Counted from the first letter of the stretch, positions 15,960 to 56,388 are shown. The stretch: 64,000 nt of DNA from Marsupella aquatica (GCA_973895155.1 OZ316892.1:26497233-26561232); one strand, 5' to 3'. Translations and numbers: made by a program. Notes: generated by a model not told the origin, from the letters alone.

Positions 15960-17050
15960 ATGGCCGCAGCCGGTCTAATTTCGCCGATGCTCACCACCAT
16001 TTCACTCACGCTAGCTGTCATCGTCCTATCCGTTGTCAGTTCAGGTGTAGCACAAGGCAACTCTGATGCCCTTCCCTTTCCGGTGCGCACTGTCTATCAA
16101 TTTCCGGTCGGTGCATACGTCGAGAACCTAGCTGTTCGCTCGAATGGTCAGATCCTGGTCACGATTATCACCTCTCGCAATCTTTTTCTCTTGAACTCCA
16201 AGCAGATCGGGAACCGACACTCGTACACAGCTTCGACGGGTACGAAAGCTTGTCGGGCATAGCCGAGTACAGGCCGGACATTTTCGCCATCGGCACAGGA
16301 AACTTCAGTGTCGCAGCTCTCAACGTCGTCCCAAGCACATGGGCCGTGTGGAGAGTCGACATGCGCAACGTCCATCAGCAGGCAGACGGAACACTAAGCC
16401 CCGCTCCGTTAGTCTCCAAGATCACCGACGTCCCAAACGTTTTCTTGAACGGGATGTCCCTGCTGTCCGAAGAGCAGGGCACCATCCTCCTCGGTGACTT
16501 TGCTGGTGGCCAAATTTTTCGGCTCAATGTGGATACTGGAAATCTACAGCTAGTGATCGCCAATACCTTCACGGCTTCGGCTTCTTCAGAAATTCCACGA
16601 CTTCCACCCGTCGGTGTCGACGGCATCCGTGTGCGAGGTGACTCTGTCTACTTTGCCAACGTCGGCAAGAAAATCTTCGTTAGGCAGCCGATCAATGAGG
16701 ACGGCACACCAAATGGAAACGGAGTCATCCTGGCCAACGCTACATGGCAATTCGACGACTTCAATTTCGACACTCATGGGAATGCGTATCTGGTCACTGC
16801 AGGAAAGGGCAACTCAATACTGAGGGTCTCGCCCGACGGAAGTCGTCAACAAATCGTTGCCGGAAATGAAAACTCGACCCTGATTGCCGAGCCAACTTCT
16901 GCTGCATTTGGGAGGGGGCCATGTGACCAGAACACTCTGTACGTGACTACTGCAGGAGGATTGCTCGCACCCATTAATGGATCCATCACCGTTGGCGGTC
17001 AGGTTCTGGCGATTAGTACCAACGCGAAAGGACCACCGACATTGTTCTAG
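15960..17050 (+). pseudogene. Beta-propeller paralog with 1-bp frameshift near 16212
   Basis: ORFs 15960-16262 and 16250-17050 together align to 8383-9483; gggaaccg here versus gggcaaccg in the intact copy. Confidence 0.8.
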
Positions 17051-17916
17051 ATATTCTAAGAGGTCGTTTGCCTCATCGACTTCCTTCTCGTAAAGTTCCA
17101 ACAGTCTGAAATTAAATAGAGTACAAGAGATGATCATATATATATAGACACTATTGATCGACCAAATCACACTCTATTAGTTGAGAAGTCGCAAGAGATT
17201 AGAAGCATAGTTCTAGCTAGATGTATGTAGGAGGTTTCGTTGACCATCAAATTTGACCTTTGGAAATTGACAGGGATGAGAATAGTTTCGTTTTAATTTG
17301 GTTGGCCCATTTGCGGCATTCTTACGTACTCAGGATTTGGGTTTTGGACTGGTACGAAGGGTCGAACAGAGTCTAAGGTTTCTAGAGGAAATTCACCACT
17401 GTCCTCGGACTTCGTTTAGTATGACTCCAGTCACTGGACCTAGGGAGTCATCTGAAATATTCGGAGATCTTCAGAAGTACAGACTAGAATGTGGTTGAGT
17501 TAATTACCAGATACACACAACTCAGTCAAAAGTAAGTCGCCACTTCTTGCTACATGGCCCCAAGTATTGCAGAAAATTTTGAAGCTCACCCGATGACAAA
17601 CAATTTTCAATTGCTGGATCGAGGATTTCCAATCAAAGCTAACTCTTTCAGGAGATTGGATGAGCTAGACTACAACTCCATTCTGTTATATTACCGATTG
17701 AATTCGAGAATAAAGGAAAAGAAACAGAAGAATTCGAAATGCACACTGAAAAGTATTTGCATGGCAACAATCTGTCAAAATCATGAGAGAGGTCCAGGAT
17801 GGCTTGTGTATACCAAATGATGTGAAGTTCAAATCTTTGGGCCGAGTTTCATGCTATTACCGTCATACCTGTCCAAGTTCTGCAGCATAGATATAGATAG
17901 ACTGCCAGTCAAATTT

Positions 17917-24845: not shown

Positions 24846-27064
24846 CTGCACATTATCCAGAATAATCAACACGTCTTTGCCCTTCAAGTAATGAGGCACA
24901 TTGAAATGGTCATAATGTGATCCTTCGCCTTGTCGTTTCAATGAAATTTCAATCTTTCTCAAAACCTCTTCGCTGCTGTTTGAATTTGCTTCAAAATTGT
25001 CCAGATTTATGAAGCATGTGATTGGAAAGGTGTGAGAGATGTCATGGAACACCTGTTGTGCTAACGTGGTCTTTCCGATGCCGCTGAGCCCAACAATGAA
25101 GATGGTGTGTGCATTGGGCTTGGCCAACATACTTATGACTTTTGTTGTGCGACCTTCAAAGTCAACAACATACCCTCGACGACTAACAGCATCGGCCGCA
25201 TCTCCTGATCGAAGGATATACTCTGCACGTATCTACAGTTGCATAATTGCTATGTCAGAAGCAAAGAGGGACTCTTCTGTAGTAAGCCAAGAGGAACGTT
25301 CTTACTAAAAAACCTTGCAATATCTAGACCAAAGCGACTAAACGTGACTCTCATGACTCGATTGGGATTTCCTCGCAAAAGAACTGGACAAAAAATCATA
25401 CGATATTAAATAAGGTTTGCTACGACAGTCTGTCGTCAGGTCTCACACACACATACATTTAACCGCCACAAAGTTTACGTCAATCTCTTGTCCTTTCAAC
25501 TATTTTCCCCTCTCCCATTGCTTACTTAAAAGCACGCTCCAGGAACATAATTTGCATAGTTTACAGGGACCATAGATATGATACCTGGCGGAGGAACTGC
25601 TGAAGAAATGAGAAAGCACTTGATTGTTTCCCCTTTGGCTTACATAAGTCAGAATGATTTGCATCAACAGAATAATAGATATCCATGTTCGCCCTACTCG
25701 ACGCTTCAGGAACTAAATGAAGATACTTTCCGAGGACATCCTACATCACAAAACACTGTCTGTATTAGACATCCTACATGACAAAAGATTGTCTCTAGTA
25801 GACATCACAGTTGGGAAATTTCCATGAAAGCCAACAGCAGCTTTAAGGTAAGAAAGTCCTCATTTACAGGCTACTAGGCCCCCACACAGTTGGAATATTC
25901 AACTAGCAAGGTGGGGGGCGTACTACTAGAAACAATGAATGAGAGAGAATCCATTGAGAATTTTCTGTGAAGGACTACCAAGCTAACTAATAAACATTGG
26001 GGATTCAATCAAGCTAAGGGATCACTGGCCAAGTAAAATAATACACTTTTGTAACAAAAAACATATCAGAGCCAGGAACGTTCGAGTACCAAATGTTTCT
26101 TGTGTTTCATCCATTCCATAGGTGAGCCATTTGCGACGGGACTTCAAGTCCGAAAAGCTTGCATTCTTCCTTGCACCGCTGGCATTGAGGATCTCAATTT
26201 CAGCCAAGAGTGCACCGCTGGCATTGAGGATCTCAATTTCAGCCAAGAGTGCACCATTGAAGCAATCAGGGAGCTTTTCACCCAGAAATGATCCAAGGTG
26301 TGGTGTGCCATAAAAGAACATGCCTCTAAGATTATTGAACCAGTTGTGAATGCGTTGCATTCCGGGAATTTCGTCCCTCTTTTGGCTCAGCGTCATATTG
26401 GCATGTAGGCATAGTTCCTTGAGTAGGAGCCCTCCGAGACAATGGCCCACCAACACTACTGGGCATTGAGCTTCACCAACCCGTGTGGTATCATTGGTAA
26501 GTGCCGACAGTAAATTCTCCCTTGTCAAGAACATATCTAGCCTCCCTTTCTCATTTGTCCTTTTGGCGACGGAATCATAACTGTTAGGATGCGAGCTTTG
26601 GGAAATGTTTCTACAAGCCATGATTGTGGCCAAAACTCAGAGTTGTCATGTGACATCCATGCTGTGATGTGGGCCTCGTTGCAAGCTTTCAGCTGAAGTC
26701 CGTGGAATAACACAATCTCGATTTCTGGCTTCTGCTCATGTGGGGGCCTGTAGACTTCATATACCATATCATGGAGCTGCAAGGTAATCGCATCTGTATT
26801 AGTCAAGTGTACAACACCAGATCGGACACAGATAAAAGATCTACCAAATAGGTGATTCGAACATACATCTACCATTGAACTCTATTGACTTAAGATGTAG
26901 GGTCTTCGGCCCACATTGGTCACAAACAATGAACGATATGGTTTCCCACATACCTGAACGAGCTCGGGTACAACCAGTTGAAAACTCGAACTTGCAGCAG
27001 AGGTAAATACTCCTTGCAACTTGTTCCAAACACCGAGCACCGAGTCCAACGGAGGTTCAGTCAT
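24846..27064 (-). pseudogene. Truncated hydrolase-NB-ARC pseudogene (inverted copy of the 5' half of the 56389 gene)
   Basis: Same exon layout (exon 1 27064-26954, exon 2 from 26776). 4-bp deletion near 26580, 39-bp tandem duplication near 26173-26250. P-loop GLSGIGKTT; homology ends right after Walker B (IILDNVQ). Confidence 0.88.
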
Positions 27065-29605
27065 TATACTGGTTGGTGTATAACCAATTACGAGTGGACT
27101 GTTTGGGACGTCACGAAAAATTGGTAACTCAACCTGTAGTCCAATCCGAAGTACAACGGTTTGGCTAACAAGGTGGAAAGAGAAAACGAAAGCAAATTGA
27201 GCCGTTAAGATGGACGCAGCCCGGGACGCAGCAGATGATGGATCCACGAGGCATGAAAATCATCGACATGGCTGAACAAAGCCACGAGCGTCACACAAAC
27301 GATTTGCTCTGGAAATTTGCTTTCGAAATGGTCGAGAGCTTACATCTACCAAGTCATTATATGCTCATCTACTTTCCATTATCACTGCCTCCTTGCTCCA
27401 ATCTAAAGCCGGATGCAGCCATCGATCCATGCAAAATCTGACAGACACACCAACAAGACCAATATCAATTACTTTGTAACTCCTATCCCATATGAATCTA
27501 TTATTTGTTGGCAGGGCAGAACACTGGACAATAAAATCTTTGGCTCTGTTTCCCTCAGTAAAGTAGCTGGAGCATGAAGTTCTCGCTTGCATCTACCTGC
27601 CAAAGCCTGGGAGTCAAATCACTAGAACATCCCACTTAATCTTCGGCAAAACAGCAGACCAAAATGGTACAACCAAAGGGAGCATCGAAGTTAAGTTATC
27701 ATGAAGAGCTATGACCTACTCAGCTTGTACGAACTGAAATTTAAAAGAAAGCCATTGAGATACACTTCGAATGCACACCTTTCAACTCAGGTTACACTTC
27801 GAATGCATACCTTTCAACTCAGGTGGACCTTTGATGAGTTGAGAAAATGATGACTAAGCATGCGGGCCACGGTGCCTGGTCAATTGATGAGAATCCGTGG
27901 AAGTCATCGTTACAGCTAAGCCAAGGCAAGCTAGACCAGGCCAGGCAAGTCCAATCAAATCCAATTATGTCCGGCAAGTGGCCAATCTTCTCCTAGTTGG
28001 CTGTGGTTTTTTCTGTACCTCCAAGGGGCCGTCGAAGACACAGGAAAAAGAGTTTGGCTAGCCTGGTACTACCTGTACGACATAATAATGCACAGGGGCA
28101 GGACAAAGCAAACTTCTTTTGCCCACGCAACATTGGGAAGCGGTGAATTCTTAAATCGATCTGGTTCCTACACTATGGTATTGCTCTTTGAAGCTCTGGG
28201 ACATATAGTATTCGCAATCACTCGGCAATCACTCGACTGCAATAAGCATTTGGTTTCCATCACCAATTGCTTTCTAAGTAGCTGGAACTTGCCACTGAGA
28301 AAAGTTAACGAAGGAATGGAAGAACCGCTCCATCGGCTCCTCCCATCTACCATCACTCCGACCCAGACATTGGCAGAAAAGAGAAGCTTTGTACCGACCA
28401 GATATAAGTTTTCAGCAGGGCCCAAACCTCAACATCCAAAAGAGCCGGCCAGACCGATTGTACTTCACATTTTTTAGTCGATGTGAAGCTGTCCATTGCC
28501 AGTGAGATTACAGGTCGGTTTGCCAGTGAGATTACAGGTCGGTTACTACTGGAGATGGAGAAGGTGTCAATGGAATCGACTGGATGACCAGACGACTTGA
28601 GCAGCTGATCTGATCATTGAAATTGACAATGAATCAATCATGTTGAGCATAGATGACATTCGCAACGGCAAGTCCATAAACCATCCAACTCACAATAATT
28701 GACATAGAGAGATACGTGATTCACCTCCACATGAGACTATATCCATGGGAACACACAAGAGCTTTATTGCATTCTAGGCCGACCGGCCATACCAAGCATC
28801 CACAGCACAAGCTCTCCCACTACAACACTATGCACCTCTTTTGCGAACCACCACCCTTCGCATCATACAAAGGAAACAAAATCAGAAATACCCAATTTGC
28901 GAACTTACTCGCATCGCAACGTCTTCGCTACTTCCCATCTCAAATTCTTCGCAAACGGCCCTTCGCAACTACTTCGCAACTTGCGATTCTAAATACGTCG
29001 CAACATCTCCGCAACGTTGCGACGGCACTGTCCTTGCAAATATTGAGAAACGACAAATTTCATTATTTTGCGAGAACAAATGAATCGCTCGCGTTGCGAT
29101 AACATTTACATCGCAATTTCCGATGTTAAATTTCTCTATAACTTGCGATGCAAACAAACTCGTAAGATTGCGAGAAGCGGATGACCGCTTTGTTGTGAAG
29201 GCATTTAACTCGCAAACATGTGGAGAGGAAGTCTTCGCTAGGGTTGTGATTTAGACAACATCGCAAGTGTTGCGATGCGTTTCTCCTCGGAATGGTTGCG
29301 ATATGTTCACCGTGGCTCTTTGAGATGGGGGTTGGTTCTCAAAAGCTTCGCAAAATGTATATTTCATGGGTTTTTGTGTATTTGGGTTAGGGTGAGGGTG
29401 AGGGAGACCATTCATGGGTTTTGAAGGAGGGAGGAAAGTGATGTTGACCCAGTCTGTCGCAATTAAAATGGCATTACTGAAAAAGTACAAAAGTTACAAA
29501 ATGGAAGGGTAAAAACCCTTAGGTAAAGTGCCACGGCCATGCATGCTGATCGCTATACATGTGAACTCGATGTAAGTGCTCTAGCTACAACTTGTCTACA
29601 TCGAG

Positions 29606-31703
29606 CTAGAAAGGAGTGTTCCTGCCCCTCCTTGCCTTCTTCCCCTTGGCCTTCTCCTTGCCCTTGTGTGCTCTTGGGGGGGGTGCAACCTGGACTTCCT
29701 CCTCCTCTTGGTCACCCTCGGGGTCACCCTCATCCTCATCCTCATCCTCATCCCCACCTCCACCGCCCTGGCTTGCCGCGCTACCACCCCCAGCACCACT
29801 GGAACGTGCTGATGCAAATGACTGGTCTCCAGTGCTAGTTGGTCTGGCTTGAGTAACAGGAGCTGTGCTCCCCTCCCCTGTCCCCTCCACATCCTCATCA
29901 CTACTATCGGTGCCACCCTCGGTATGGGAGTCACCATCCTCCCCTCCCTGCTTCCATTAGCAAACCAGGGTGTCTGTTAGTCTCATATTATTTACAAGTG
30001 TGAACAAAAGAGATATTCATTCAAAATTGCAATGAATGTAATAACCTAAAAATTCTCACCAATAATTCATCAACTTGCTGAAAGAGATGCTCCTTCCCAT
30101 GTTTCTGGCCCACCTCCATCTCAACCGCCGTAATCTTCCTCTTGTACCTCTTGTACTAAGCCAAAACAAAACCAGCACAATTGGGTTAACACCAACCCAT
30201 AACCCGATTCACATGGCTTCTAAAAATTAGGGGGTTTGTTGGGGCTGGTGGGGTGGTGCATCAAGGTTTTGGGGTTATGGAGGGTGGCATATATGGGGAA
30301 GACCCTCAAAGAACACTTAAACGATCGGAAAATTTAAAAATTCAAATTTTTGAAATTTTGCGAAGGCGCCAGCTTCGCAATCATAAGGACAATTACGTTT
30401 GCGAAGCTGGTTGCGATGCGAACGTCTTCGCAACGCCTTCACAAACGTAAGCAAAAAAAGGGCATAATAAGGTTTGCGAAGGATTTGCGAAGCTACCCGC
30501 ATCGCAAATGTATCGCAAACTCTGTCATGGCAAAAACCCGAGAGGGAAGCAACTGTACGTGACCTAATCTGACACAACAAGTCTAATTGTAACTACTTGG
30601 TGGAAATGCAAGAAAGAGTTGGCTCATTGCAGGTGTGTTGGAATAGGAATTGGAGTAGCAAGAAGTCAAGGGAGGAGAGGGAGGTGCACTCACGAATGCT
30701 GCTTTGAGGCCGGGGAGGCCACCTTGACCCAGCCTGTGGGTGATGTTGGGCTTGTCTCGGACTCGCTCAGCTACCTTCAGGAACTTGTTGGGTGGATCGC
30801 CTACTTCTGCTACAACCTGCTGGAGCTGGGCTACCTTCTGCTCCATCACCTTCAGGTCCCGGTCAGACTTCCCGGCCTCCTTTGCCCTTCGAGCCTTTGC
30901 CAGCTTCTCTGTGAAATCATTGAGGAGCCTGGCTGCTTTCAACTTCACCTCTGTCTGGTAGAAGGCCTGCCAGATATCTTCTGAGAATTGCAGCGGCCTC
31001 TGCAAATTCCTATACTCCTCCAAATCTCTAAGGTGAGACCTGATCTTCATTCTATCATGGTATCTAGCTTGTGACATGGAGTTTGAAATTTTGTCAGCAA
31101 GCCACTGTGAATCCATCTCTCCTCCATTTTGAAATGCATCTTTCACCTGATTGATGACTCGCTTCTGCTCTGCCTTTGAGCGAGTGCCCCACTCGACTCC
31201 TCTTGCAAAATTTGTGGATACAATGTGCCTGATTGTGCTCTTGGCCCCATTGTAAGCAAGCTCGGTGGGAATCCCCTCATCCTCTAAAGTAATCAGAGGC
31301 AGCTTCCTCCTTGCTGCCTCCTTCTTTCTTTGCTCCTCCCTCTGTTTCCTGATCAGGTCTCTCTCATCTTTCCTCCTCTTCTTTTCCAATGCTTGAGGCG
31401 AGAGCACTCCAGCCTGAGCTCTCTCGTCCCTCTTTTGCTTCCTCTCAGCAGCCGCCTGCTCTGCTGCCTTCCTTGCATCCTCCTCCACTGCTGCTTGCCC
31501 TGCAGTGAGACCTGCTTGCAAGGCTTGGCCCAGAAGGGCACTCAATGATGCCAGCCCTGCTGGACTGGTGAAATCAATTTGACTCAACTGTGCAACCGAA
31601 AAATGCTCATCCACAATCGCCTTCAATCGATCCCCCCCCCTCGGTTGCCTCCGCTGCTGCCAGAAGCTCCTCCATCACCACCAGTCCCCTCTTCGCTCGC
31701 CAT
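29606..31703 (-). CDS. TnpA-like second CACTA gene; exons 31703-30694, 30155-30060, 29947-29606; frameshift in G9 run at 31632-31640
   Basis: GT-AG phase-0 introns join the ORFs. Coiled-coil/basic region, HRLGQGG motif reminiscent of Ptta/En-Spm proteins, acidic tail. ATG at 31703 is in frame if the G run is 10 or 7 long. Confidence 0.6.
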
Positions 31704-32429
31704 CGCTCCGCCCTTGCCCTCGTTGCTCTCCTCAGGCCTGAATGAATTGAATCCGCCTTGTCCGCGCTCGGCAATCCATAAGGATTCAAAATATTGGGCT
31801 TTGCGATTCGTTTCGCATCACAGTTTGCGATGCATCGGCCTTCGCAAAAAGCTTCGCAAATTCTATCTTTGCGAAGCTTCAAGATTCGCAAAAGCCTTCG
31901 CTATTTGGTTTTGCCATAACCCCCGTCTCGCATGCGTATTTGATGTGTTGTTAGGGATACTAAGGGGGCTTATGAACATTAAATGGGGTAGATGTAGAGG
32001 ATTATGTTGCATTTTAGTGGGATGTGATGAGATAAGGATTGGGGGGGTTAGAAAATTGAAGGAGTTATATTGCAGGGTAAGAGGAGGGGGTTTGGCCTGG
32101 TTAGGGGAGGGTTTCTTTTGTGAAGGTTGGGCTTAGATTGGCTTAGATACGAGGGGTTTTATGTTTTGGGTTTGCAGGGGGGTTTTATTTATGAAGGTTG
32201 GGGTTATATGTATTGGAGGGTAAGAGCTAGGAGGGGTTTTATGTTTTGGGTTTTGGGGTTTAGGCCAACTTAGGAGGGTTTGAAAGAGAGTTTTCAGTTT
32301 TATAGTATCTTGGGTTACTTTTATGGTATCTTAGGAGGGTAACCAAGAGGGGTGGCATATAATTATGGTAGAGAGAAGCATAGGATGGTTGAAGGGAATT
32401 GACCATTTAGGTTTTTGCTAACTTCATTG

Positions 32430-33480
32430 GCTTACGCTTTTAGAGTTCCCAAGGGTCTATGGTGGGTTTTTATTGCATGACACTCACCTTTCACTTGAAG
32501 CGGGATGAGGTTTTGGTTTTTATGCTAACAATTGAGGGAAATCCCATGTAATCATGATCCAGTGCAGGACCATCACTGCTTCCTCAACTTTTGTCTAATG
32601 CATATGCATTGTGGGAACCCGGACATCTAAAAGGTATATTTAAACATGTATGTTAGCAGGGTTTGATAAAGAGATTGTTCATAAACCTTGCCCTTCTTTG
32701 TTGTGCAAGAATATCTATATGCACATGTTTGGGGGTCTACAACTTGAGAGAAGCTAATGGCTATCCAAACTTACTTTTTTGTTTCCAGTATTTTCCTCGT
32801 GCTTCTAGATTCAGCTCATGTTCAATGAGCCACACGACCTACAGGCACTATTGAGTTCGGATCTCATTCAGGTAATTATTGTCCAACTTCATTCTGGGCT
32901 TAGGCCTTTAGAGTTTTCCCAGGGGTCTAGGGTGGGTTTTTATTGCATGACACTCACCTTTCACTCGAGGGGGGATAAGGGTTTAGGGTTTAGGGTTTTA
33001 TGCTAACAATTGAGGGGAAAACCCATGTAATCATGATACAACGCAGGGCCAACACTACTACCTCAACTTTTGTCTAATGCATATGCATTGTGGGAACCCG
33101 GGCATCTAAAAGGTATAACATCATGTATACAGTCAATGTTGTTAGTACAGATTTTTATGCTTGCCCTTCTTTGTTGTGCCATGATATATGTGGGTAAATG
33201 TCTAAGATTCCACAACTTGACGGTTGCTAATTACCATCCAAACTTACATTTTGTTTCCAGTATTTTCCTCCTACTTCTAGATTTGGCAAATGTTCCAAAA
33301 GCCACGTGACCTATAGGCACTGTTGAGCCCGGGTCTCATTCAGGTAATAATCTAACCTCACTTAGGACATAGGGTATTATAATTTTCCCAAAGGTTATAA
33401 TGTGGTTTCTTCTTGCATGACACTCACCTTAATTTGGGTTTCATGCTAACAAATATAAAAGGGTAATAAAACCCCATGTA
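32430..33480. repeat. ~475-bp tandem repeat (2 copies plus a partial third) between the divergent CACTA genes
   Basis: ttgcatgacactcacctt at ~32472, ~32943 and ~33413; ctcaacttttgtctaatgcatatgcattgtgggaacccgg twice. Confidence 0.8.
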
Positions 33481-33553
33481 TAAACCAACCTAATTGTTTT
33501 TTGAGTTCATTTTTTTTAAAATCGCTTTATATATGGCCTAATTTTTCCTAATC

Positions 33554-34753
33554 ATGCCCTACATGCAATGTAATGTGGCAGTGGATATGTCCTCTTCCTC
33601 TGAACTATCCAGTAGTGAGTACTCCTCCGATGACGATATACCCCCTCCTCCTCAGCCCGAGGTTACTGGTCCTCGTGGTCCACCCCGAAGACTTTGTGAC
33701 TGCACCAGATGTGTGGGCCAAATTTCTCAAAAATCTTATGTGTGTGCTCAACATATTGAGAGATATGGACGTCATAGAGGTCTTACTCCCGGGGCTTCTT
33801 CATCCCATATGGTAAGTTTGTTTCAATTGATTGCCGTTCTTTACTGTTATTTTTAGAGGTGAATCAATGTTTACACATATGGTTTACACATTTGGTTGTT
33901 TGTGGGTGTTTGCATGGAATAGGGATCCAGTATGCGTAGATTGGTGACACCACCACCCTATGTCCCATCACAAGGAGTTTTAGATGCTATAGGCAATGCA
34001 CTTTCACAAGCCTTGGGTTTGGGAATTAGTACCAGTCATGGGACAGAAGGGGAACACCCTCATGTGCCCACTGAGACACGAAGACCCCGGTCCAGGCCCC
34101 AATCCAACAGGAGGCCACGAGCACCCAATGACCCATCCAGAACACTAGTTCAGGGTAGGTGGGGTGTTTGTTCATTCACTGGCAAGTGTGCCTCTATCAT
34201 CAAGGATTGGGAACCTATCACTCTTGGCTTGCCTTATTTTACAGATTTTGATGAGGAGATTGTGGTTTGGGGTAGACGTTGGATTGTGAAAACTTCCACA
34301 CTTGGAGAGAGACATGGATATGGAGTATTTGCTTGTGAGGATATCATCATGGATGAGGAGGGTGGGTCAAGTGTTCGTGGTAGAGAGGGTCCTACTTTGT
34401 TCCCATACGGTGGACCCATCTACAAGAGAAGACATTGGAACATGATCCTTGCACAACATCCTGAGTGGAAAACATATGCTCTAGAGATGGATACTTTTGA
34501 TGGTAGCACTAGAAGGCATAGTGAGAAGCGGGTGATAGATGGTGATCCCATACGTAATGGGAATATTGTTGGTTTCATAAATAGTACTGTGGGGACTCGG
34601 CCCAAGCGTAGGGCCAATTGTGAGTGGGTTTTTACTGATGGTCCAATGCCGGCACCATATGGCACGACATATCATAAGGACCATTGCTTAGTTCTTGCTA
34701 CTAGGACCATTAGAGGAGGAGATGAGTTATTCACACACTATGAGTGGGATTAG
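33554..34753 (+). CDS. CACTA-encoded SET-domain protein; exons 33554-33811 and 33923-34753 (~362 aa)
   Basis: SET motifs: HGYGVFACEDI, PYGG, YAL, IDG...GNIVGFINS, ANCEW, LATRTIRGGDELFTHY. ORF uninterrupted; phase-0 donor ATG|gtaagt and acceptor aatag|GGA. Confidence 0.8.
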
Positions 34754-37700
34754 GAAATCATGTCCTTTATCCTCTTGCACCTATTTTGGACTTCCCATTT
34801 ACTATTATATATATGGCCTTTGGGCTCATTTTGGAGTAATAAGGTTTTAGCCCATGCATTTACTTTAATTCTTAATGTCTTGAATGAATGGTGTTAAGTC
34901 TATTTTAATTTGTTGTACTTGGTCAAATATACATGAGGAGGTTTTTTGGTTGTAATGTGCATAGAATGTGCAACCATCTCAACAAATGTTACCACGAAGG
35001 TTGAGAGCAACATATCGGGAGATGGGTATGTCAGAAGAGGGAGAACCATCAGAGGGTGATTCCTCATCAAGTAATGATGTAGGTGGTGCTGATGAGGAAG
35101 CCGCACCTCGGACTGATGACCAGGTCATGCATGATCAAGATAGAGCCATGGATGACTTCATGGTTGATTGGTTTGGTGCCGATGTTGAGGATGATGTGCC
35201 TCACATTGGTCATGAGGTTGGCCCTTCAAATGACCCACGGCCACAACATACTCCAGAGGGACAACAACAATGGAAAGAGGCAGAGGAACATGCTCGAACA
35301 CCTATTTTTGAGGGTGCTCGGTTGAGCCGTCTTTCTGCCATATTGGGGCTCTTGAACATTCAAGCCAAACACAAGACAAGCAATTCTATGTTATCAGACA
35401 TATTTGAATATTGTCATGACTTGATGTTACCCTCGGAGAATGTGTTGCCAGGGACCTGGAAGGATGCAAAGAAGGTTCTCTCATCCATTGGTATGGATTA
35501 CCATATTATTCATGCCTGTGTGAATGATTGCATGTTATTTCACGGGGATACAGCCCATATCACAGAATGCACAGTGTGTCATGAGCCACGGTATGAGCCA
35601 AACATGCTAACCCAGAAGGTACCAAGGAAAGCAGTTCGTTGGTTCCCCATAATTCCTCGCTTGTTGCACATGTATAGATGTTCTGACTTGGCCGAGTTGA
35701 TGGTATGGCACAAGAAACATCGTTCGGAGCCCGGTGTCATGCGATTACCAGTTGACTCTCCTGCTCATAAACATGTGGAATCAACATGGCCAGATTTTGA
35801 GCGTGACCCTCGGCATGTGCGACTGGGGTTGGCATCAGATGGAGTTAGCCCTCATTCACTTGGAGGGAAGGGGAGACCTACATCGGTCTGGCCTATGGTT
35901 CTCATGAATTACAACCTTCCACCATGGTTGTCCATGAAAAAGGGTTTTTTGTTGCTATCTTTGATTATCCCAGGGCCAAAGAAGGTGAAGAACATGGACA
36001 CCTATTTGACATTACTGGTTCAGGAACTCCAGAAATTATGGGAAGGAGTATGGGCATATGATGGTCGAAAGACTACAGGGGGTACCCCACGGGTTTTCAA
36101 ACTCAAAGGGGTTTGTATGTGGACCATGCATGACTACCCAGGTAAGAACTTTGTTGTTTAAATGCATCATATTCTAATGCATGGTATCCCCTCATTTCCA
36201 TGTGCTAATCCTAGCATAATGTGTGTTTATATGACCAGGATTTGGCTTTGTGAGTGGGTTGCAAACCCAAGGCTACAAGGCTTGCTCCACTTGTGGCCCA
36301 AGCCTTGGTGATGTAGCCAAGTATTCATCACATCTTCGCAAGATTGTTTATCTTGGGCATACAAAGTTTCTTCCAATGGAACATCAGATGAGGCGTGACC
36401 CACTACTATTTTCCTCTATTGATATGCCCTTTGGTGACGAGCGTGATGTACCTGAGCCAACAACTTTTACACACTGGAAAGACATGGCTGCAAGAGTGGC
36501 AGACCCAGAGGATCCCATGCAATTTGACGGTAGTGGCTTGACAAGGTGGAGTATATTAACCACTTTGCCCTATTGGGGTGAGTTGAAGATCCGCCATCTA
36601 TTAGACCCCATGCACATTGAGGGAAATGTGGGAAAGGCTTTGATAAAGGCTTTCTATGGAGAGAAAGACACTAACTTCAGGGAGGCTTGTGAGGATCTTG
36701 AGATGCATCCAGACGTGTGGGTCATAAGTGATCCTATCACAGGGATCGAGCATCGACCTTCAGCTCCATGGGTGCTTCCTATTGGCCAGAGAAGGGAGTT
36801 TCAGAATCGCATAGGAGACATGCGGTTTCCTACTGGTTATGGTGCCAATCTCCGAAAGGCCTTTGGGATGGAGGACAATCATAAGTGGCCAAGGTATCTC
36901 AAGACACATGACTACCATAGGTTATTGCAGCACATATTGCCTGTGGCCATAATAGGTTTGGCAAGTGAAGAAGTGCAAGATGCCCTTTGGTCATTGAGAA
37001 AATTATTGAGATGGGTATGCTCTAAGGAGATATATACTGATGAGATCCCTGGGATGGAGGTTTTGGCAGCAGAGGTGGTATGCAAGTTGGAGAAGGCCCT
37101 TCCTCCTTCCTTTTTTGACTGTCAAGTGCATTTACTTGTTCATCTTGTTCATGAGGTGGCCATTGCAGGTCCTGTGCATTGTCGGTGGATGTATTGGCTA
37201 GAATGATACATGGCAGTGTTAAAAGGTTATGTACGTAACCGTGCACAGGTTGAGGGAAGCATGGCTACAGGATACTTAGCAGCTGAGAGTATGTTCTATT
37301 GTAGTAACATATTGGCCACAATTGATTGTACCTCTCCCCGTACTTGGGTAGAGGAGAGGGAAGATGAAGAGGATCGTTTAACAGGTGCTAGGAAAACTCG
37401 CATGTTGACACCAGTGGAGGTGAAACAACTGACCACATTCGTGTTGAGTAACAGCACTATCATGGAAGAATGGAGGGATTTCTATGAGGATGCCAAAAGT
37501 AACAGCACAAGACCAAGGATTTTTCCAAAGTACCTTGACTATATGAAGGAGAAGTTAGTTGAGGTGGATGACATGGTGGTCAGGGGAGAGAGTGTATTAC
37601 ATTTTCCGGCTATCACAGATGATGTTCGTACCATTGTTCATGGTCCCTTGAGAGTGGTTACAACAAGGACAGCAATGTGGACACAAGGAAGACATTTCAG

Positions 37701-38358
37701 GTGATCTCCATCTACCTTAGTAACCTTTGATTTGAATCACTTGGTTTAATTTAATTCATTTGTAATACAAGCACGTATATTGAAGAGGCAGATTCTTGGT
37801 GTGTTCAATTAATTGGAATATGTTTGTGTCTATTTTTGTGTAACATATCCTTATGGTTTGATGGATTTTAGGATTTCTTCCCTTGATGAGAAGAGGGGTC
37901 GTACCTTTGATTGTGGAGTTCAAGGACAATTCTCTCAAGATTCCCGCAGTAGTCGCCATGACACAAATATTATTCGAGATGTTGTGCCACATTATGGAAA
38001 GGTAGAAGAGATTCTAGTGATATCTTATGATGCACAATCAAAGTTTGAAGAGTATGTCTTCAAGTGCAAGTGGTTCAAAGTGAACCTTGCAGGTAACAAT
38101 CCTACTGTGGTTCAAGATGAGTGTGGATTTACACAACTGAAGACGTCTGCCACTAGTTTCCAGCCATCTCATTGGCAAACATCAGAGCCGTTCACTTTTC
38201 CAAGTCATGTGGAACAATGTTTCTATATTCCATACCCCCCAAACCCAGAGGAATGGTCACTTGTCATCACATATGTGCCACGGTCTCGTTCAATCGTTGG
38301 GGAAAAGCCTGATATTCTGGTTGTGTCCCAACCTGAAGATGATGAGGACCAAGTTTGA
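33554..38358 (+). pseudogene. CACTA TnpD transposase; exons 33554-33811, 34965-36141, 36239-37700, 37872-38358; one premature TGA at 37204-37206
   Basis: IHACVNDC, RHVRLGLASDG, WPMVLMNYNLPP, TMHDYPG, LDPMHIEGNV, LKTHDYH, PPSFFD..VHLLVHL, GPVHCRWMY, FKCKWF. All splice phases are consistent. Confidence 0.9.
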
Positions 38359-40176
38359 GGGGTCTGTGTTTGTGGATATATAGCTACACGGATATATAGT
38401 TAGATTTGATGATATGAAGATTTCTCTTCTCGGTAGAATGGAGAAATATGTGCTTCTCAATTATCAATAAACTTATGTTTTGTAAGTATATCATTTTCAA
38501 ATGTTGTTTTCTATATCTCCCATCCCTACCCCACACTCACCACACCTTTTGGTAGACTTTATGCAAAGAAAACTCATGTTGCTTGTAGTCCTCTATCCTC
38601 CATGCTTTCCTAATCCCCCCTAGCTGTTCTCCTTATTACTTGTACCCACCTCCCTCCTCCTTTCTTTCATTGTCTGTCCGTCTTATCAAACCCTCCTTCC
38701 TCCTTCCTCTCCTTGTCCCAACCCCTGGCTTTCTATTTCAACCCTATACTTTCCTTACTTTCCACCCCTGTCCCCCACTCTTACCTATACAACCTAGCTT
38801 CTCTCCTCCCTCCTAAACCTATACCCTTAAACCTCCCTCATTTCCTTGTCCCTCTCTAAACCAATACCCTCCCTCCTTTCCTTGTCCCTCTCTAAACCCT
38901 AAACTCCCTCCTTTTTATTTTCACTCCCTAAATCCAAACCCTCCCTAAAACTATATCTACATACCCTTCCTCCTCCCTCATTTCCTTGTGCCCCCTAAAC
39001 CTGTATCCTCCCTCTTGGATCCCTCCGTTCCTTGTCCCTCCTAGCCCCATTCCCTTCCTCCTCCTTTTCATTGTCCCTCCCTAAAAATTACATGTATCCA
39101 CCCTCCTTTACCCTCCCTCCCCAATCCCATTCCTTTTCCACCTCTTTGAAGCGCTCATAATATTTTGCGAAACATCTTGCGAAACCCCTACACCCGCAAA
39201 CTCATCGCTACATTTGCGATACTTAACTGCTCCCTAATTGCCATCATCCCCTCATCGCAAACTTCCGAAGATACCACCATCTCAAAGTTGCGAAACCAAA
39301 ACATTCACAAAATGAGACCCTAGACAGGCACAGGATTTGCGAGCCTATTACTATCGCAAGTTAGCCATATATTCCACAAACATCGCTCATTTGCGAGACA
39401 ATAAGACTCGCAAAATATTTTGAGATGCTTAAATATTCGCAACCATTTAGTTTTCCGGCGCATCTCAATGAATTTGCGAAGCGGTAAAGATCGCTAACTT
39501 GTTCAATGGTAATTGCTTCGGAAATGTTTTGCGATACCTGAAGTGTCGTAAAATGTTGCGATGGTCTAAGTTTCGCAATTATGTGTTGCGATGTGTGTAG
39601 ATTCGCTAAGTGCGATGCGTATCGTATCGCAAGTTTAGCGATGAGATTAATCTTGCAAAGCTTTCTTCCTCTTGTAAAACGCCTTCGCAAAATTGGCAAA
39701 TATGTAGTATTGTCCCTATCTCTCAACTAGCTTCGTAACAATGAGCCTAAGTTTCACCAGGGTCTAGCATCAGTCCTAGCTATATGTACAACAACACTAT
39801 CGCTAACATTAGCTAAATTTTAACCCGAGTTAGATTAATTGTGGTTAGCTCATGAGTCACAAAACTAGAGCAATATCTAACAAATCACAGACGAAATAAG
39901 AAGGAGACAAAGTTTCAGGATTTTTCGAGTGAGTGGACTTTTTGGCAACGCCATCTCTGATCTGAAGAAAACCGACGGAAATTGACGCAAGAAAGTTTGC
40001 AATGGAGACTCTTTGACAACCCGAAGTCTGTATGTCAGGAGCAGCTGGTCATGCTTGTTGACTTAGGAGCAACTGGTCATGGTTCTTGACTTTGGAGTGT
40101 ACGCCACGCCTAGCTTTCTATTCACTTACCCTAACTCTATAATTACGGTAGTACTAGCACGGAAGTGGAATGTGGC

Positions 40177-41725: not shown

Positions 41726-42825
41726 CTATAACAATGTCGGTGCTCCTTTCGCGTCGGTACTAATCGCCAATACCTGACCACCAACGATGATGGATCCATT
41801 AATCGGTGCGAGCAATCCTCCTGCGGTAGTCACGTAAAGAGTGTTCTGGTCCCATTTCCCCCTCCCAAACGCGGCAGAAGTTGGCTCCGCAATCAGGGTC
41901 GAGATCACGTCTCCGGCAATGATTTGCTGAAGGCTTCCGTCGGGCGAGACCCTCAGTATCGAGTTGCCGCTTCCTGTGACCAGATACGCATTCCCAACAT
42001 TGTCGAAATTGAAGTCGTCGAATTGCCATGTAGCGTTGGCCAGGATGACTCCGTTTCCATTTGGTTTGCCGTCCTTTTTTATCGGCTGCCTAACGAAGAT
42101 TTTCTTGCCTACATTGGCAAAGTAGACGGAGTCACCTCGGACACGGACGCCGTCGACACCGAAGGGTGGAACTCGTGGAATTCCTAAAGGAGCCGAAGCT
42201 GTGAGGGCATTGGCGATCACTAGCTGTACCTTTCCGGTATCGACATTGAGCCGAAAAATTTGGCCACCAACAAAGTCACTGAGGAGGATGGTGCCCTCGT
42301 CTCGGGACAGCAGCGACATCCCGTTCAACGTGACGTTTTGCACGTCGGTGATCTTGGAGACTAATGGAGCAGGGCTTAGAGTTCCGTCTGCCTGCTGCTG
42401 GACGTTGCGCATGTCGACTTTCCACACGGCCCATGTGCTCGGGGCGAAATTGAGAGCTGCGAGGGTGAAGTTTCCGTCATGACGGCGAAAATGTCCGGCT
42501 TGTACTCGGCTATGCCCGTCAAGCTTTCGTACCCGTCGAAGCTGTGTACGAGTGTCGGCTGCCCAGTCTGGTTGGAGTTCAATAGAAGAAGAGTGGGAGA
42601 GGTGACAAGCGTGACCAGGATCTGACCATTCGAGCGAACAGCTAGGTTCTCGACGAATGTGCCGACGGGGAATTGATAGACAGTGCGCACCGGAAAAGGA
42701 AGGGAATCGGAGCCCGAATCATAGTTGCCTTGCGCTACACCTGAACTGACAAGGGATAGAACGATTGCAGCTAGTGTGAGTGAAATGGTGTTGAGCCTCG
42801 GCGAAATTAGACCGGCTACGGCCAT
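41726..42825 (-). pseudogene. Beta-propeller paralog with 1-bp frameshift near 42475
   Basis: ORFs 42825-42376 and 42427-41726 together align to 8383-9483. Confidence 0.8.
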
Positions 42826-45935: not shown

Positions 45936-46613
45936 GAGGATAAGCCTGGGTTTTAAAGTTGTGGATAAACCCGATTGGGGTAAGCAATATCTGCTAATTT
46001 GGGGTGGTGTAGATTTCTCGCTTATCTAGTATGTCGACCCCACTAAATATAGAACGTGTCTCCATTCTAAATTGTATAAAACCATGAGTTTTTTTCATTA
46101 GACACACTTCACCAAAAGTAGAGCATTCTATGTAAGGAGGGATAGAGAAGACTTTTGTGCGCACGTGCTTGGAGGTTTTACTCGGCATGTGGTAATCCGC
46201 ATAATAATTTTCTTGCTATCCCTTAACAATTTAGTGGTACTTGTGGGTATTGTGAAATAAATTTTGACAATGTTGACATTTATGTACGCATGTTTGGAGC
46301 TAAAGCTTGACGTGTGATATTTTGCATGATTGTCACTAATTGTCTCATATGTTTTCACTATATTGGCAAATGCTCATTAAATTATAGATATCACATACGT
46401 CGGATAGGAATGTTAACAACCAAAAAACAAAAGAGAACCGCTGTGCGCATGTTTGGAGTTTCACTCGGCGTGTGATATTTCATAGTAGTTTTTTTTCTCG
46501 TTTTATTGTTGTTACTTCAAAAGAATAACAAATAATCATTCAAATTTTATTAAGAGACTATGTTTAGCGACGTATAAGAAGACACTGTGTGTGTAAAGTT
46601 CTTATTTTTGATC

Positions 46614-49299
46614 ATGTCATCCAAAGAAGATGAGTCGGGCAACTCATCAGCTCATTCTACTCTTGTTAGACACGATGGAAATCACAATCAAGATTGTAGT
46701 GCAAAATTCTCCCCAGTGTGGAATTATTTTGAACGATGTGATACACCATCAGCGTGTAATGATATTAATCGTATAAATCAAAGATGCAAATCTTGCAAGA
46801 AATATAAAATGCATCATGCAACACGAGCAAAAGCACATTTGATGGGAAACATACACAAAGGAGATGCGCCACCTTGCACAGGCTTGTATGAAGTTGTTGA
46901 CTTAGAAACATCAATAGAATGTACAATGTCATAAAGGTTGACCCATCCATAAAGTACAAACAAAGTGATGGAAGTCATATTATGTTATCCATGAGAGGTC
47001 GTAGGTCATATAACCCATCTTCCAATTTGCAAGCATCAACTCGAGACTCAAATTTTGTTGACCTCAATGAGGATGGAAATATGAGTCATCAAAGTAGAGC
47101 ATCAAACTATGCAAACCCAATCATGGATGCTTATCAAATTCCAAATAGAGCTCTTTTGGATAAGCTGTGGGCTAAAGTTTTTTATTCGAGTGGTATTCCG
47201 TTCAACGTGTCAGAGAATCCTTTCTTCCGTGAAGCAGTCACAAAAACCTCAAAAGGGATTGTAAATGGATATTCTCTTCCGGATATGCAAAATTTGCGAA
47301 TAAAATTATTGGAGGAGGCTAGAGTTGATCTTACAAAGGACATGACAAAAACAATGAAGGAGGCAAAACCCTTTGGATATTCTCTTTCATCCGATCGATG
47401 GAAAAATATCCGAAGGGAACCTTTGATGAATGTCATGTTGTTGAGTTCAAAAGGAGACTTCTTTTTGGATAGTTGAAACGCTGCACAAGCAGACAAGAAA
47501 GATGAAAAGTATCTTGGTGACATGCTCGGGGGTCTCACTATATGGGGACCTCCCCACCGCCTGCGACGGTTTTAGGGCTCGGACACCCTAAAATGTAAGA
47601 AAAAAAATTTATAATCCCCTATAAAGTTGGAATATTCTTGGAATATTCTAAAAATTGGATTTAAAAAGACCTAATGTTCTTATAAGTCTCAAAATTGAAT
47701 TTAAAAGACCCTATTGTTCTTCTACAAAAATTCTTAAGTCTTCCCTTAGAACCAATAAAATGACCCTATCCTTCGTCGCACGTGATATGCCATTTTTGTG
47801 GAAGTGAAACCCCCGAGGTGACATGTGGTTAAAATACATAGATGACATTGGCGCCGATCACATCATACAAATTGTTACCGATGGGGCGCCTGCAAATTGT
47901 GTAGCAGGTGAAGAGATAGTGATGAAAAAATATTTGCATGTGACGTGGAGTTGGTGTGCTGCCCACGTGTTTAATTTGTTACTAGAAGACATGTGTGGCC
48001 ACAAGAATGTAGAGCTAGATGAGTGGAAAAAAATCCATTCAAAGTGATTTTTAAGCACTTGAGATGGATAGTTAAAGCAGTTACATCATCACAAAAATTG
48101 TCTACAATATTTGTGAGGAAATCTAAAGTTGTTAAATCCAAATGCAACGAGATTTGCAACAATTTTTTTAATGGCGCAGAGAGCATTGGAGCTAAGAGGA
48201 GCTTTACAACAAATGGTCATTGATGATAAGTGGCAATCCTATCGTGATCGGCTGCTAGTTCGACCAAAGTTACAGGGGCATATGATGAGGGTAAAGGCAG
48301 ACGAACTTAAATCGTGGATACAGCAAGATACATTTTGGGCTCAAATAAAATCTACAGTCGCTTTTTTTTGCCGTTGGTGAAGATGTTGCAAGAATTTGAT
48401 GGAGTTTTACCACAGTCTCCTTGGCTATATTGGAGCTTGAAAAAAGGAATAGCTAAACTGGAGGCGAGTATGGAGAGGTGTACATTAGTAACGGATTACT
48501 TAAAACCAAAGATAATGAAAGTGTATATGGATCGACAAAAATCACTCACTACTAATTTTATGTTAGCAGCAGCATATCTGAAGCCTCAATTTTTCTTCGA
48601 TGAAGATGAAGATATGACAGGAGATGCAGAACTGTATAGAGGCTTCAATGATTACGTTCGTAGATATGAAGAACACAAGGTGAAGGCAGGAATCAACCAT
48701 GATCGAGATGTGACAATACTTATTTTTGACATCCAAATGCAGATATTTGAGGCTCAAAAAAAACTGTCAAATTCATCGGTTGCAATGAGAGGAGCACAAT
48801 CCAATATTGGGAAATTAAATCCTAGAGAGTGGTGGCATTTGTATGGAGCTGATTACGCGGAGCTAAGATTGATGGCCAGAAGAATCACGCATCAACAAAT
48901 GTGTGCATCTTCATGCGAACAAAATTGGAGTTCGTACGACTTTATCCATTCAAAAACCGTAACAGGTTGACCAATGATCGAGCAAAGGATTTGGTTTTTG
49001 TATTCACAAATTCGAGGGTGCAAAAAGGGCTCACGAAGGTGAGAAACCCTCATACATCTATGTACAGACAATATGATGAAAGAACAGCAACAAATGATGG
49101 GCCGAGACCTACTTCCATAGAAGGATGTCACACTAAAGAACATGGTGTTACGTGTGCGACTCTTGGAGAAGATGACGTGGAGGATTTTGATATAATTGAT
49201 GACGCAGATGAGATTTTGCAAGGATTATCATTACACAATGATAATGACATGTTGACTCGTATTCCACCAGATACTGAAATAAGTGATGCCGGAGAATAG
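46614..49299 (+). pseudogene. hAT-superfamily transposase (BED-like finger, DUF659-type core, dimerisation domain), disrupted
   Basis: VWNYFE..RCKSC..HL, GIPFNV..NPFF, SSDRWKN, QIVTDGA, WCAAHVFNLLLED, NATRFAT, WWHLYG, SSCEQNWS. Frameshifts, stops and a MITE insertion. Confidence 0.88.
47525..47817. mobile_element. 293-bp MITE inserted in the hAT transposase
   Basis: TIR CTCGGGGGT(C/T)TCACT, 14/15 match; 8-bp TSD GTGACATG; removing it restores YLGDMWLKY. Confidence 0.9.
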
Positions 49300-53601: not shown

Positions 53602-56388
53602 GTTCTCAAGTAACCACAACAACTTGTAGGACAAAGAATAGGCGCTTACGGAGTGTGTTGGCTGCTTGCCGAGAGTATGGATGATGCAAGTACAATAAAG
53701 CTGGATCAAGAATCCTGAAATGTCATTGCACACTTTGTGTTGGTACCAATAATACCCAAGCAATGAAATTTTAATTTTTGTTTAATTTTTTATTCGTTTG
53801 TTTAGTATTTTGAAAGTAACAACGATGAAGGGGAAAGACAACTATGTGAAATACCACATGCCAAGTCAAAACTCCAAGCATGCGCACAAAAGATGTCTTT
53901 TCCTTCAAGTTGTTACATTCCTATTTCAATCTATGTGAAACCTATAGTTTATATATCATTTGTAAATGTTGTGGAAATATTTACAAGGAATCCAGATATC
54001 CATGCAGAGTACCACATGCCGAGCAGAAACTCCAAGCATGCGTACATGAAAATCTCTATCCTAGAAAATACTCCACTCAATTCACAAATCACACTAAACT
54101 GTTAAGGCGATACTAGGTTCTCTCATACAAAATACCACATGCCGAGCATAAGCTCCAAGCATGCGCATACGTGAGAACACTAATATCCCTCCAAATTAAA
54201 ACTAAATGTTAAAGTCATACATGGCAAAGCATAGCCAAAAACAATTCAAAACAATTCAAAAACTAGTGAACTAAACTCAAAACTAAGCAAAACATAAGCA
54301 AAAGCAAGAAAAGCTTACCAAAGGCCTCTCCTACAAAACAAGCAAACTTAGTAATGAGAAGTTAGTAATGAGAAAAAGTGAGGAGACCTCCCCACTTTGT
54401 AGTCCCGGTCCCGCTCTGCCCCCCCCCCACCTTGCAAGCTGACCCCGGGTAGCCGAGCCCGATCCCCCCCTGGCGGCAGCCCTCCTCTCGCGCGACCTAA
54501 CCCTAAAGCCCCCATATATCTTTAAACTAATCAGCTTTCCATGCCCTCCATATACTGGTGGACTGATTGAACACTAGTTGAGGGAGAGAGACCCCCATGC
54601 CATTCAATGCAGTTGAACGAAATTTCAACTAAGGGAGGGTGTGACAGAAATTCTAGCCTCTTAGAATGAGGGGGAAGCTTTTCAGCAGCTACGGAATGCC
54701 TTCTCATGACAATCGATTCGAAAATACTTGTACCCTTGAAACAGATAAAATACACTTTGCGAGAGGCCAGGGCACTTTTTTGGTCAAACTCTGCGAACGA
54801 GCTTCATTCAGGCACGGGCAGCAAACTCCTCAAATAATTCTCTAATTCCACCCCATTAGAAAATACTAGCCACAATTGGATAAAATTAGCCAGGTTTTTT
54901 ACCCCAGAGCCAGTTTTCCACCTCGCCACACCCCATTAGCCAGAATACAATCTGACCATCATCCTTAAATCTAATGAGATCTATGGGAGGTAAAATTTCA
55001 TAAAGAATTTTCTTAGCATCTGCTACTTCGCACCAGGTGACATTGGGCACTGTGGCTAAAACGAAAAACCTTTAACCCTACACTGTCGCAGATCCAATTG
55101 ATGGTCGTCAGAGAGCCGCCATTGCAAACTTTCTTGCATCAATTTCCGTTGGTTTTCTTCGGATCAGAGGTGGCGTTGCCAACAGTCCACTCGCTCGGAG
55201 TGATGGCCGATGGAGCGGTTATTCCATTCCTTCATTAGCTTTTCTCAGTGGAAAGTTCCAACTAGTTAGAAAGCAGTGGTGATCGAAACCAAATTGTTCT
55301 TGCAGTCCAGTGATTGCAAAAACAATGTCCCAGAGCTTCAAGAGCAATACCATAGTGCAGGAACCAGATTGATTTAAGAATTCACCGCTTCCCAGTGTTG
55401 TGTGGGCAAAAGAAGTTTGCTTTTTCCTGCCCCTGTGCATTATTATATCGTACCTGGCTAGCCACACTCTTTTCCTCTGTCTTCGAGGGCCTCTTGGAGG
55501 TACAGAAGAAACCACAGCCCCCTCGGAGAAGATTGGCCAAGTGCTGGGTGCCGGACATAATTTGATTTGATTGGACTTGCCTGGCCTCGCCTCACAGCGT
55601 AGTAAAGCCCCGGGGAAGCGGAGATCGGAGGAGTTGGTTGAGCCATTCGGTGAGTCTTTCCTTTTCTCGGTCATCAAAGGTCCAGCTGAGTTGAAAGGTG
55701 TGCATTCGAAGTGTATCTCTATCGCTTTCTTTCGAATTTCAGTTCGGACAAGTTTAGTAGGTCAAAGCTCTTCATCATAACTTAACTTCATTTGACTGCT
55801 CCCTTTGGTTGTACCATTTTGGTCTGCTGTTTTGCCGAAGATTAAGTGGGATCTTCCAGTGATTTGACTCCCAGGCTTTGGCAGGTAGATGCAAGCGAGA
55901 ATTCAATGCTCCAGCTACTTTCCTGAGGGACACAGAGCCAAAGATTGATTGTCCAATGTTCTACCAACGAATGAAAGACTCATACGGGATAGGAGTCACG
56001 GAGTAATTGATACTGGTCTTTTTGGCGTTCAGTCAGATTTTGCATGGATCGATGGCTGCATCGAGCTTTAGATTGGAGCCAAGGAGGCAGTGACAATGGA
56101 AAGGAGATGATCATATAATGACTTGGTAGATGTAAGCTCTCGACCATTTCGAAAGCAAATTTCCAGAGCAATTGTTTGTGGGCAGCTCGTTGTTTGTTCA
56201 GCCATATCAATGATTTTCATGCCTGGTGGATCCATCATCTGCTGCGTCCATCTTACCAGCCCAATTTGCTCTCGTTTTCTCTTTCCACCTTGTTAGCTAA
56301 ACCGTTGTACTTCGGATTGGACTACTTACCAACTTTTCGTGACGTCCCAAACAGTCCACTCGTAATTGGTTATACACAAACAAGTATT

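Follow-up and report, generated by a model that had tools for sequence, protein, structure and literature searches.

Alternative splicing of a transposase gene has been reported for the Spm transposons, in which TnpD and TnpA are produced from one gene in both maize En/Spm and Arabidopsis ENSPM3 (PMC13547354; bioRxiv 2026.08.24.746577), and in Spm3 the TnpA protein counteracts silencing (bioRxiv 2026.08.24.746577). VANDAL elements, with their VANC protein, offer a model for a transposon protein acting on the chromatin of its own family (PMC12730594; bioRxiv 2025.02.11.637652; bioRxiv 2026.08.24.746577). SET-domain genes have also been described in DNA transposons: the red-algal Plavaka, placed by its authors in the EnSpm/CACTA superfamily, carries the SET-bearing accessory gene PAG2 (bioRxiv 2025.02.11.637652), HarbingerS and MuDR of Phytophthora carry SET genes (PMC12730594), and so does a proto-Helentron of Phytophthora, whose SET gene was described as Clr4-like with conserved cofactor sites (PMC4067079). 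The cited reports on these SET genes give the sequence and propose a function. In this work, an EnSpm/CACTA element is described from a stretch of 64,000 nucleotides of Marsupella aquatica (GCA_973895155.1 OZ316892.1:26497233-26561232; hereafter, the window). The element occupies positions 28818-39712 and carries, within the first intron of its TnpD transposase gene, an exon encoding a predicted SET domain that appears to share the first coding exon of the transposase.

Like En/Spm and ENSPM3, this element has CACTA ends, a 3-bp target-site duplication (TSD), subterminal repeats, the TnpD domains and a second product that is likely spliced from the transposase gene. Unlike them, the second product is a SET domain sharing a coding exon with TnpD and not the DNA-binding protein TnpA, and the other accessory gene, denoted ORF-L, is encoded on the other strand and could be assigned to no TnpA family. 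With Plavaka it has in common the superfamily and a SET accessory gene kept over long evolutionary time, with a function that is proposed. PAG2 is described as a separate gene in which an N6-adenine methylase is fused to the SET domain, within a three-gene cassette and next to a Plavaka-type transposase, whereas here SET sits in TnpD intron 1, accompanies a plant Transposase_21-type transposase and lacks a methylase partner (PF01555 fused to SET was found in 0 of the 100 members scanned with Pfam); the two are set apart by description. HarbingerS, MuDR and proto-Helentron, which are also DNA transposons with a SET domain, differ in belonging to other superfamilies and hosts and in having SET in separate open reading frames (ORFs), according to the same reports. 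VANC is a sequence-specific regulator of the MuDR superfamily, described without a SET domain and with demonstrated activity, whereas the SET isoform is predicted here from sequence and a structural model. The initial annotation of the window had been aware of no described CACTA-SET system. This is overtaken for the superfamily, since SET genes in DNA transposons, including the EnSpm-superfamily Plavaka lineage, are already published, and it stands for the land-plant arrangement: a literature search whose coverage did not extend to Repbase Reports, most subscription journals or the Bostrychia supplements returned no publication in which an EnSpm of land plants carries a SET exon, nor did PMC11982613 or PMC12973397 yield anything on the system. 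The novelty here lies in an EnSpm of land plants with a SET exon that likely uses the first exon of the transposase. The features on which this rests are the following.

28818 to 39712, no strand assigned: whole EnSpm/CACTA element, a decayed copy of 10,895 bp, delimited by CACTA-type ends and TSD
33582 to 33811, plus strand: shared first coding exon (exon 1), with ATG at 33587 and 75 codons, encoding the TnpD N-terminal Cys/His domain (hhalign; GT donor)
33923 to 34753, plus strand: SET exon, made of a ~70-codon linker and the SET core (34139-34750), with its own stop TAG and an in-frame ATG at 33932 (Pfam, AlphaFold2, fold searches, dN/dS)
34965 to 36141, plus strand: TnpD exon 2, Transposase_21 with the first two acidic catalytic motifs (Pfam; acceptor AG)
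36239 to 37700, plus strand: TnpD exon 3, with C(2)C, H(3)H and DUF4218, and a premature TGA at 37204-37206
37872 to 38358, plus strand: TnpD exon 4, with DUF4216 and the stop codon

Exon 1, which contains the CDCTRC..C..H motif, ends at 33811 in phase 0, immediately before a GTAAGT donor, and two AG acceptors, at 33922 and 34964, open the SET exon at 33923 and the TnpD core at 34965, both in frame. The SET exon is 831 nt long (276 codons plus TAG) and is preceded by an intron of 111 nt. In all this the initial annotation was right. It had placed the start of exon 1 at 33554, in place of which ATG 33587 is probably the coding start, because MSSS opens the related proteins and the window, like 7 of 10 Sphagnum-like copies, has an AG acceptor 5 nt before this ATG; and it had given the system an extent of 33554..36141, far short of the actual element.

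In the mechanism proposed here, these exons would form one transcription unit: when the SET exon is skipped, a TnpD of 1,116 residues would result, and when it is used as the last exon, the product would be a 351-residue protein composed of the TnpD Cys/His finger, the linker and the predicted SET fold. It is likely, from the conservation of the splice signals and the annotated junctions, that both splice forms are made. The independent units for this comparison are three families, namely the window, a Sphagnum-like family and L008, to which gene models are added (metagenome loci are numbered with L, and protein or gene models with P). The donor GT is present in 19 of 19 loci, the AG of the SET acceptor (acceptor 1) in 26 of 29, and that of the TnpD-core acceptor (acceptor 2) in 23 of 25, also in L008; all three signals stay in phase 0 across the three families, in contrast to the intron sequence around them, which has diverged. 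Exon 1 is joined to SET in annotated models of Sphagnum, Calypogeia fissa and Riccia sorocarpa, and in P0088 (38% identity), from a Logan contig of 2,141 nt, a single uninterrupted ORF encodes both finger and SET. Downstream of the SET stop, a conserved AATAAA was not observed before acceptor 2. A third isoform, the SET-TnpD fusion found in P0019, P0123, P0145, P0154 and P0184, was rejected because its junctions vary between models.

The other side of the splice choice is an ordinary plant transposase. When exon 1 was aligned by hhalign with the N-termini of 39 TnpD proteins, a probability of 89% was obtained, with a score of 29, while none of 100 column shuffles exceeded 14.8. Many single-ORF plant TnpDs carry a matching N-terminal Cys/His domain joined to the core, and therefore the ordinary transposase needs the splice to 34965. 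Transposase_21, DUF4218 and DUF4216 all score above the Pfam cut-off, and the DDE, C(2)C and H(3-4)H motifs, the set described in PMC12730594, could be located. Of the 1,116 codons counted from ATG 33587, one, codon 790, is a stop, the single premature TGA that had already been noticed, at a position occupied by an Arg codon in 3 of 5 relatives. The protein falls among plant EnSpm proteins in a tree that included no named Plavaka protein. In a quick tree, drawn from 69 searched relatives, seven SET-linked TnpDs form a group (Shimodaira-Hasegawa-like approximate likelihood ratio test, SH-aLRT, 84), which suggests a single origin.

The arrangement extends well beyond Marsupella. A first search returned 44 close relatives, from Sphagnum, Calypogeia fissa, Riccia sorocarpa and further contigs, and a profile search yielded 130 clusters at 50% identity. 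Across 44 metagenome loci, exon 1 lies upstream of the SET exon in 19 of the 22 that contain enough DNA, and TnpD exon 2 lies downstream in 24 of 28; every one of the seven exceptions (7/7) carries a truncated SET exon. Gene models from Sphagnum, Calypogeia and Riccia share the exon 1/SET/TnpD layout, and in those of Riccia, whose identity to the window is 33-42%, the order of finger-SET and SET-TnpD is likewise preserved. By these comparisons, a check that the initial annotation had suggested, the SET exon is a family trait at a constant position in a CACTA lineage. In Sphagnum and Riccia the protein is annotated as an ordinary host 'SET domain-containing protein' (in a cluster of 360 members), a label that can inflate counts of host chromatin genes.

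Two side observations concern the relatives. The SET cores of P0001 (Sphagnum jensenii) and of P0002 and P0326 (Calypogeia fissa) are 76% identical and their ORF-L proteins 66%, when the Riccia families reach only 33-42% to the window; such moss/leafy-liverwort similarity is compatible with horizontal transfer among plants that share peatlands, or with old lineages having survived unevenly. Distant short-tailed SET relatives devoid of the exon-1 motif were also observed, specifically P0139 and P0146 (Calypogeia fissa) and P0204 (Ginkgo biloba), P0139 with a weak DUF5763 match, and their genomic context may point to the source of the SET exon.

The ratio of nonsynonymous to synonymous substitution rates (dN/dS) in the SET core is 0.24 (0.15-0.37) between the window and L017, 0.26 (0.16-0.41) between the window and L008, and 0.29-0.34 between L008 and the Sphagnum-like family, which indicates that the exon is under purifying selection between families. 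The initial annotation had named a neutral fragment confined to this one copy as an outcome that would undo its proposal, and the data point the other way: as judged by comparison, the SET exon is real, conserved and selected. That annotation had also noted an intact SET ORF beside a broken TnpD. Both statements are correct, and they are uninformative: the chance that both coding breaks of the window copy miss the SET exon is ~0.73, and the exon is open in only 5 of the 18 related copies spanning it, the other 13 being broken. An intact SET in a dead element was thus rejected as evidence. For one element pair, the synonymous divergence (dS) of the SET core (34136-34750) was 0.60 (0.42-0.83), about half of that of TnpD exon 2 (35301-36140), 1.34 (0.96-2.13); module exchange between families or a constraint at the RNA level may be the cause.

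The identity of the SET domain was examined by profile and by fold. The match to Pfam SET (PF00856) is marginal, 22.7-24.0 bits with a cut-off of 22.4, and the family is matched by 66 of the 100 aligned relatives; the Atlas feature score to the SET cluster is 0.97. Searches of the PDB with the single sequence or with an alignment of close relatives gave no match for the SET protein. A fold from a shallow alignment reached a predicted local distance difference test (pLDDT) of 43, a value that rose to 93, with a predicted template modelling score (pTM) of 0.88, when the 100-sequence alignment was given to AlphaFold2. In a Foldseek comparison of this model with the PDB, all 40 rows listed were SET enzymes, and the best solved match was the SET domain of Legionella LegAS4/RomA (PDB 5czy, 8swi), with a Foldseek E of 1e-07 (1.4e-07 before rounding) and a profile E of 2e-08. 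VIA gave Z 12.2 and a root-mean-square deviation of 2.5 Å over 124 residues, many SET subfamilies being tied, with Z from 12.2 to 10 across Set1, EZH2, SET8, SET7/9, NSD2, LegAS4 and PRDM. Both HMM and structure therefore support the SET fold that had been assigned from sequence, a prediction of high confidence. The hits of the relative and profile searches included no canonical plant SET family, and a viral contig scan gave no close relative. No origin is claimed, as the fold matches to giant-virus SET proteins were no better than those to cellular ones.

NHS is a consensus SET motif whose Asn is tied to binding of S-adenosylmethionine (SAM) and to catalysis. The initial annotation had already read FINS at this position, and the family departs from the canonical motif in the same way: the Asn is kept in 89% of relatives and the His is replaced by Ser in 95%. 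The residues G132, G134, Y167, N220, N232, E268 and Y273 are conserved at 89-98% among the 100 aligned relatives, down to 22% identity (G132 92%, G134 98%, E268 98%, Y273 96%), so that the GxG SAM-binding motif and the terminal ELxxxY Tyr, in the window ELFTHY as first noted, are present. LegAS4 is similar to the SET protein in having no pre-SET Cys cluster in the aligned part and no His in the NHS motif (it reads INF), and by this analogy the loss of His is not disabling by itself. It differs in that identity is 24-29%, that it is tied with other SET enzymes by VIA Z, and that it has a 19-residue post-SET segment and needs its ankyrin repeats (PMC10653858). LegAS4 is an H3K14 methyltransferase (PMC10653858), and its likeness allows no inference on the substrate of the transposon protein.

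According to the mechanism proposed, the SET isoform, which likely binds SAM, would place methyl groups on a lysine in the chromatin of the element's own copies and so help them to escape silencing. The post-SET cap would come from the isoform's own N-terminal extension or loops, or from a partner, and the protein would be brought to the element through the shared finger or through ORF-L. That the isoform is an active methyltransferase, capped in one of these ways, is slightly more likely than not. Its recruitment to element chromatin by the finger or ORF-L is conceivable, with the balance tilted somewhat against it; self-chromatin action is put forward by analogy with TnpA and VANC. Taken as a whole, the explanation in which two proteins arise from one first exon and the SET isoform writes the element's own chromatin is the one preferred here, tentatively and at a little under an even chance. 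Rather doubtful is a more specific version, in which an old land-plant CACTA lineage uses a splice choice to join one finger either to a cut-and-paste core or to a post-SET-less methyltransferase, the latter becoming active solely at the element, partnered by ORF-L or TnpD, and marking the element's own histones against silencing. If true, this version would provide an element-encoded histone writer in plants open to direct testing and a SET architecture working without post-SET. Sharing of the first exon would moreover link the dose of the transposase to that of the writer through one splice decision. The lineage offers a small candidate protein of 351 residues with a confident structural model, many Sphagnum copies and hosts related to tractable model bryophytes, making the activity of a transposon-borne SET assayable.

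Several facts weigh against this explanation. Regarding catalysis, the window protein ends 3 residues past the terminal Tyr, with a median of 6 in the 64 of 99 relatives in which the motif was found, 31 of these 64 having five residues or fewer, so that a post-SET segment is essentially lacking, when such a segment contributes to the cofactor site of other SET enzymes (PMC3868588) and the SET domain of LegAS4 is inactive alone (PMC10653858); the motif conservation is, in addition, partly circular, the relatives having been found by a profile of these same motifs. Regarding splicing, the gene models joining exon 1 to SET are predictions, the P0088 contig comes from a library of unspecified type, all three families have an in-frame ATG no more than six codons from acceptor 1, and a stand-alone SET of 263 residues is called in many annotations. 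Regarding selection and sampling, most metagenome loci are near-copies of the one Sphagnum-like family, the independent sample being the three families plus the gene models, and shared SET changes within that family look neutral, with a ratio of nonsynonymous to synonymous polymorphism (pN/pS) of 0.84, compared to 0.49 for TnpD exon 2 and 0.38 for ORF-L (all from small counts). Neutral-looking variation and broken copies are what is expected of dead copies. Finally, nothing in the analysis indicates the substrate or whether the outcome is activation or repression.

The near-absent tail possibly leaves a SET domain that depends on a partner or is inactive, and this leads to the alternative that survives best, although it is unlikely: the spliced SET isoform would be real and, on its own, non-catalytic, serving as a reader, decoy or scaffold that binds histone lysine, SAM or a host silencing complex. 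The family-wide shortness of the tail, the missing His and the Pfam score barely over the cut-off agree with it, and inactive chromatin-regulating SET proteins do exist (PMC12886896). It is opposed by the conservation of GxG, Asn and the terminal Tyr, since GxG and Tyr are tied to SAM binding and catalysis (PMC10653858), and by LegAS4, an active relative without the same His. A somewhat less probable possibility is an active methyltransferase whose target is not a histone but, for example, TnpD, ORF-L or a silencing factor of the host; it would tune transposition and leave no chromatin marks. SET enzymes methylate both histone and non-histone proteins (PMC10653858), the model is about equally near to many SET subfamilies and ORF-L is rich in Lys/Arg. 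Published cases of accessory enzymes in transposons speak indirectly against it, as they are interpreted as anti-silencing.

Improbable, in turn, is that SET constitutes a nested gene in its own right, read from the ATG at 33932 after intron retention or through an internal start, with exon 1 not shared. The ATG near the acceptor and the frequent stand-alone calls would suit such a gene, but the acceptor is held in phase 0 in all three families while the ATG position moves, in the Calypogeia model P0002 the stretch from the junction to the conserved core contains no Met, P0088 encodes finger plus SET as one ORF, and the preceding intron is very short. That a host SET fragment was picked up by chance and has been carried along under no selection is very improbable in spite of the neutral-looking variation within the Sphagnum-like family and the scarcity of intact copies, because layout and splice signals are kept in three families, at the same position even in families 33-42% identical, exon 1 matches TnpD, canonical plant SET families are absent from the hits, and the between-family dN/dS of 0.24 has an interval that excludes 1, which counts as refutation unless the constraint acts on RNA and not on protein.

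The preferred explanation relies on ORF-L as one possible recruiter, and this gene, together with the remaining parts of the element, is located as follows.

29606 to 31703, minus strand: ORF-L, divergent from TnpD, with exons 31703-30694, 30155-30060 and ~29947-29606 (the last inferred)
28815 to 28817, no strand assigned: left TSD, TCC
39713 to 39715, no strand assigned: right TSD, TCC
28840 to 29354, no strand assigned: left subterminal repeats, motif TTGCGA/TCGCAA, 14 hits
39164 to 39691, no strand assigned: right subterminal repeats, 13 hits
30357 to 30519, no strand assigned: internal cluster with 8 hits of the subterminal motif, inside intron 1 of ORF-L
31800 to 31892, no strand assigned: second internal cluster of this motif, with 6 hits, in the region of the divergent promoter
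32789 to 32871, plus strand: predicted non-coding 5' mini-exon, copy 1, 83 nt, AG..GT bounded, inside a 470-bp tandem unit (equivalent segment in L008 and L039)
33261 to 33343, plus strand: predicted non-coding 5' mini-exon, copy 2, AG/GT-bounded

ORF-L is 72% identical to Sphagnum models and 68% to Calypogeia models, and its dN/dS of 0.17 denotes selection; in the window, it carries a frameshift in a G run at 31632-31640. No convincing match was found in Pfam, PDB profiles or Atlas, and no known TnpA family was matched. The protein is Lys/Arg-rich, clusters of the subterminal motif lie upstream of the gene and in its intron, and ORF-L is a candidate TnpA substitute in bryophyte CACTAs.

The segment 28818-39712 belongs to an EnSpm/CACTA lineage of bryophytes, as a copy that has decayed. 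Its left end, CACTACAACA, is exact, and its right end, read inward, is CAATACTACA, with one mismatch to CACTA; a related right end in L023 reads CACTAC, and the terminal inverted repeats (TIRs) are thus of the CACTA type. The 3-bp TSDs characteristic of EnSpm/CACTA are TCC/TCC in the window and ACA/ACA in L033, which is an entire element with its own duplication. Subterminal repeats, another trait of the superfamily, are evident in the 41 hits of the TTGCGA-type motif within the 10.9-kb element, in four clusters, compared to 10 in the other 53 kb. Mobility is attested in the Sphagnum-like family, where L004/L042, L006, L033 and L039 share one left end but adjoin four different flanking sequences. 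The window copy is decayed at three sites: the TnpD stop, the ORF-L frameshift and the mutated right TIR.

Upstream of exon 1, a tandem unit of ~470 bp at 32420-33430 doubles the 83-nt AG/GT-bounded non-coding segment, which is retained in L008 and L039. The element lies in a duplicated cluster (24846-28337 and 55206-58502; 1-4400 and 58497-62900) with alpha/beta-hydrolase, NB-ARC and leucine-rich-repeat-like sequence, an inverted paralog of which lacks ~11.5 kb, corresponding to the element plus ~670 bp of extra flank. Elsewhere in the window, an intronless SMP-30/gluconolactonase-like gene occurs in three copies (41729-42718 on the minus strand, near 8300-10100 and near 15900-17900), and fragments of a hAT-type transposase (DUF659) are found at 46578-48200.

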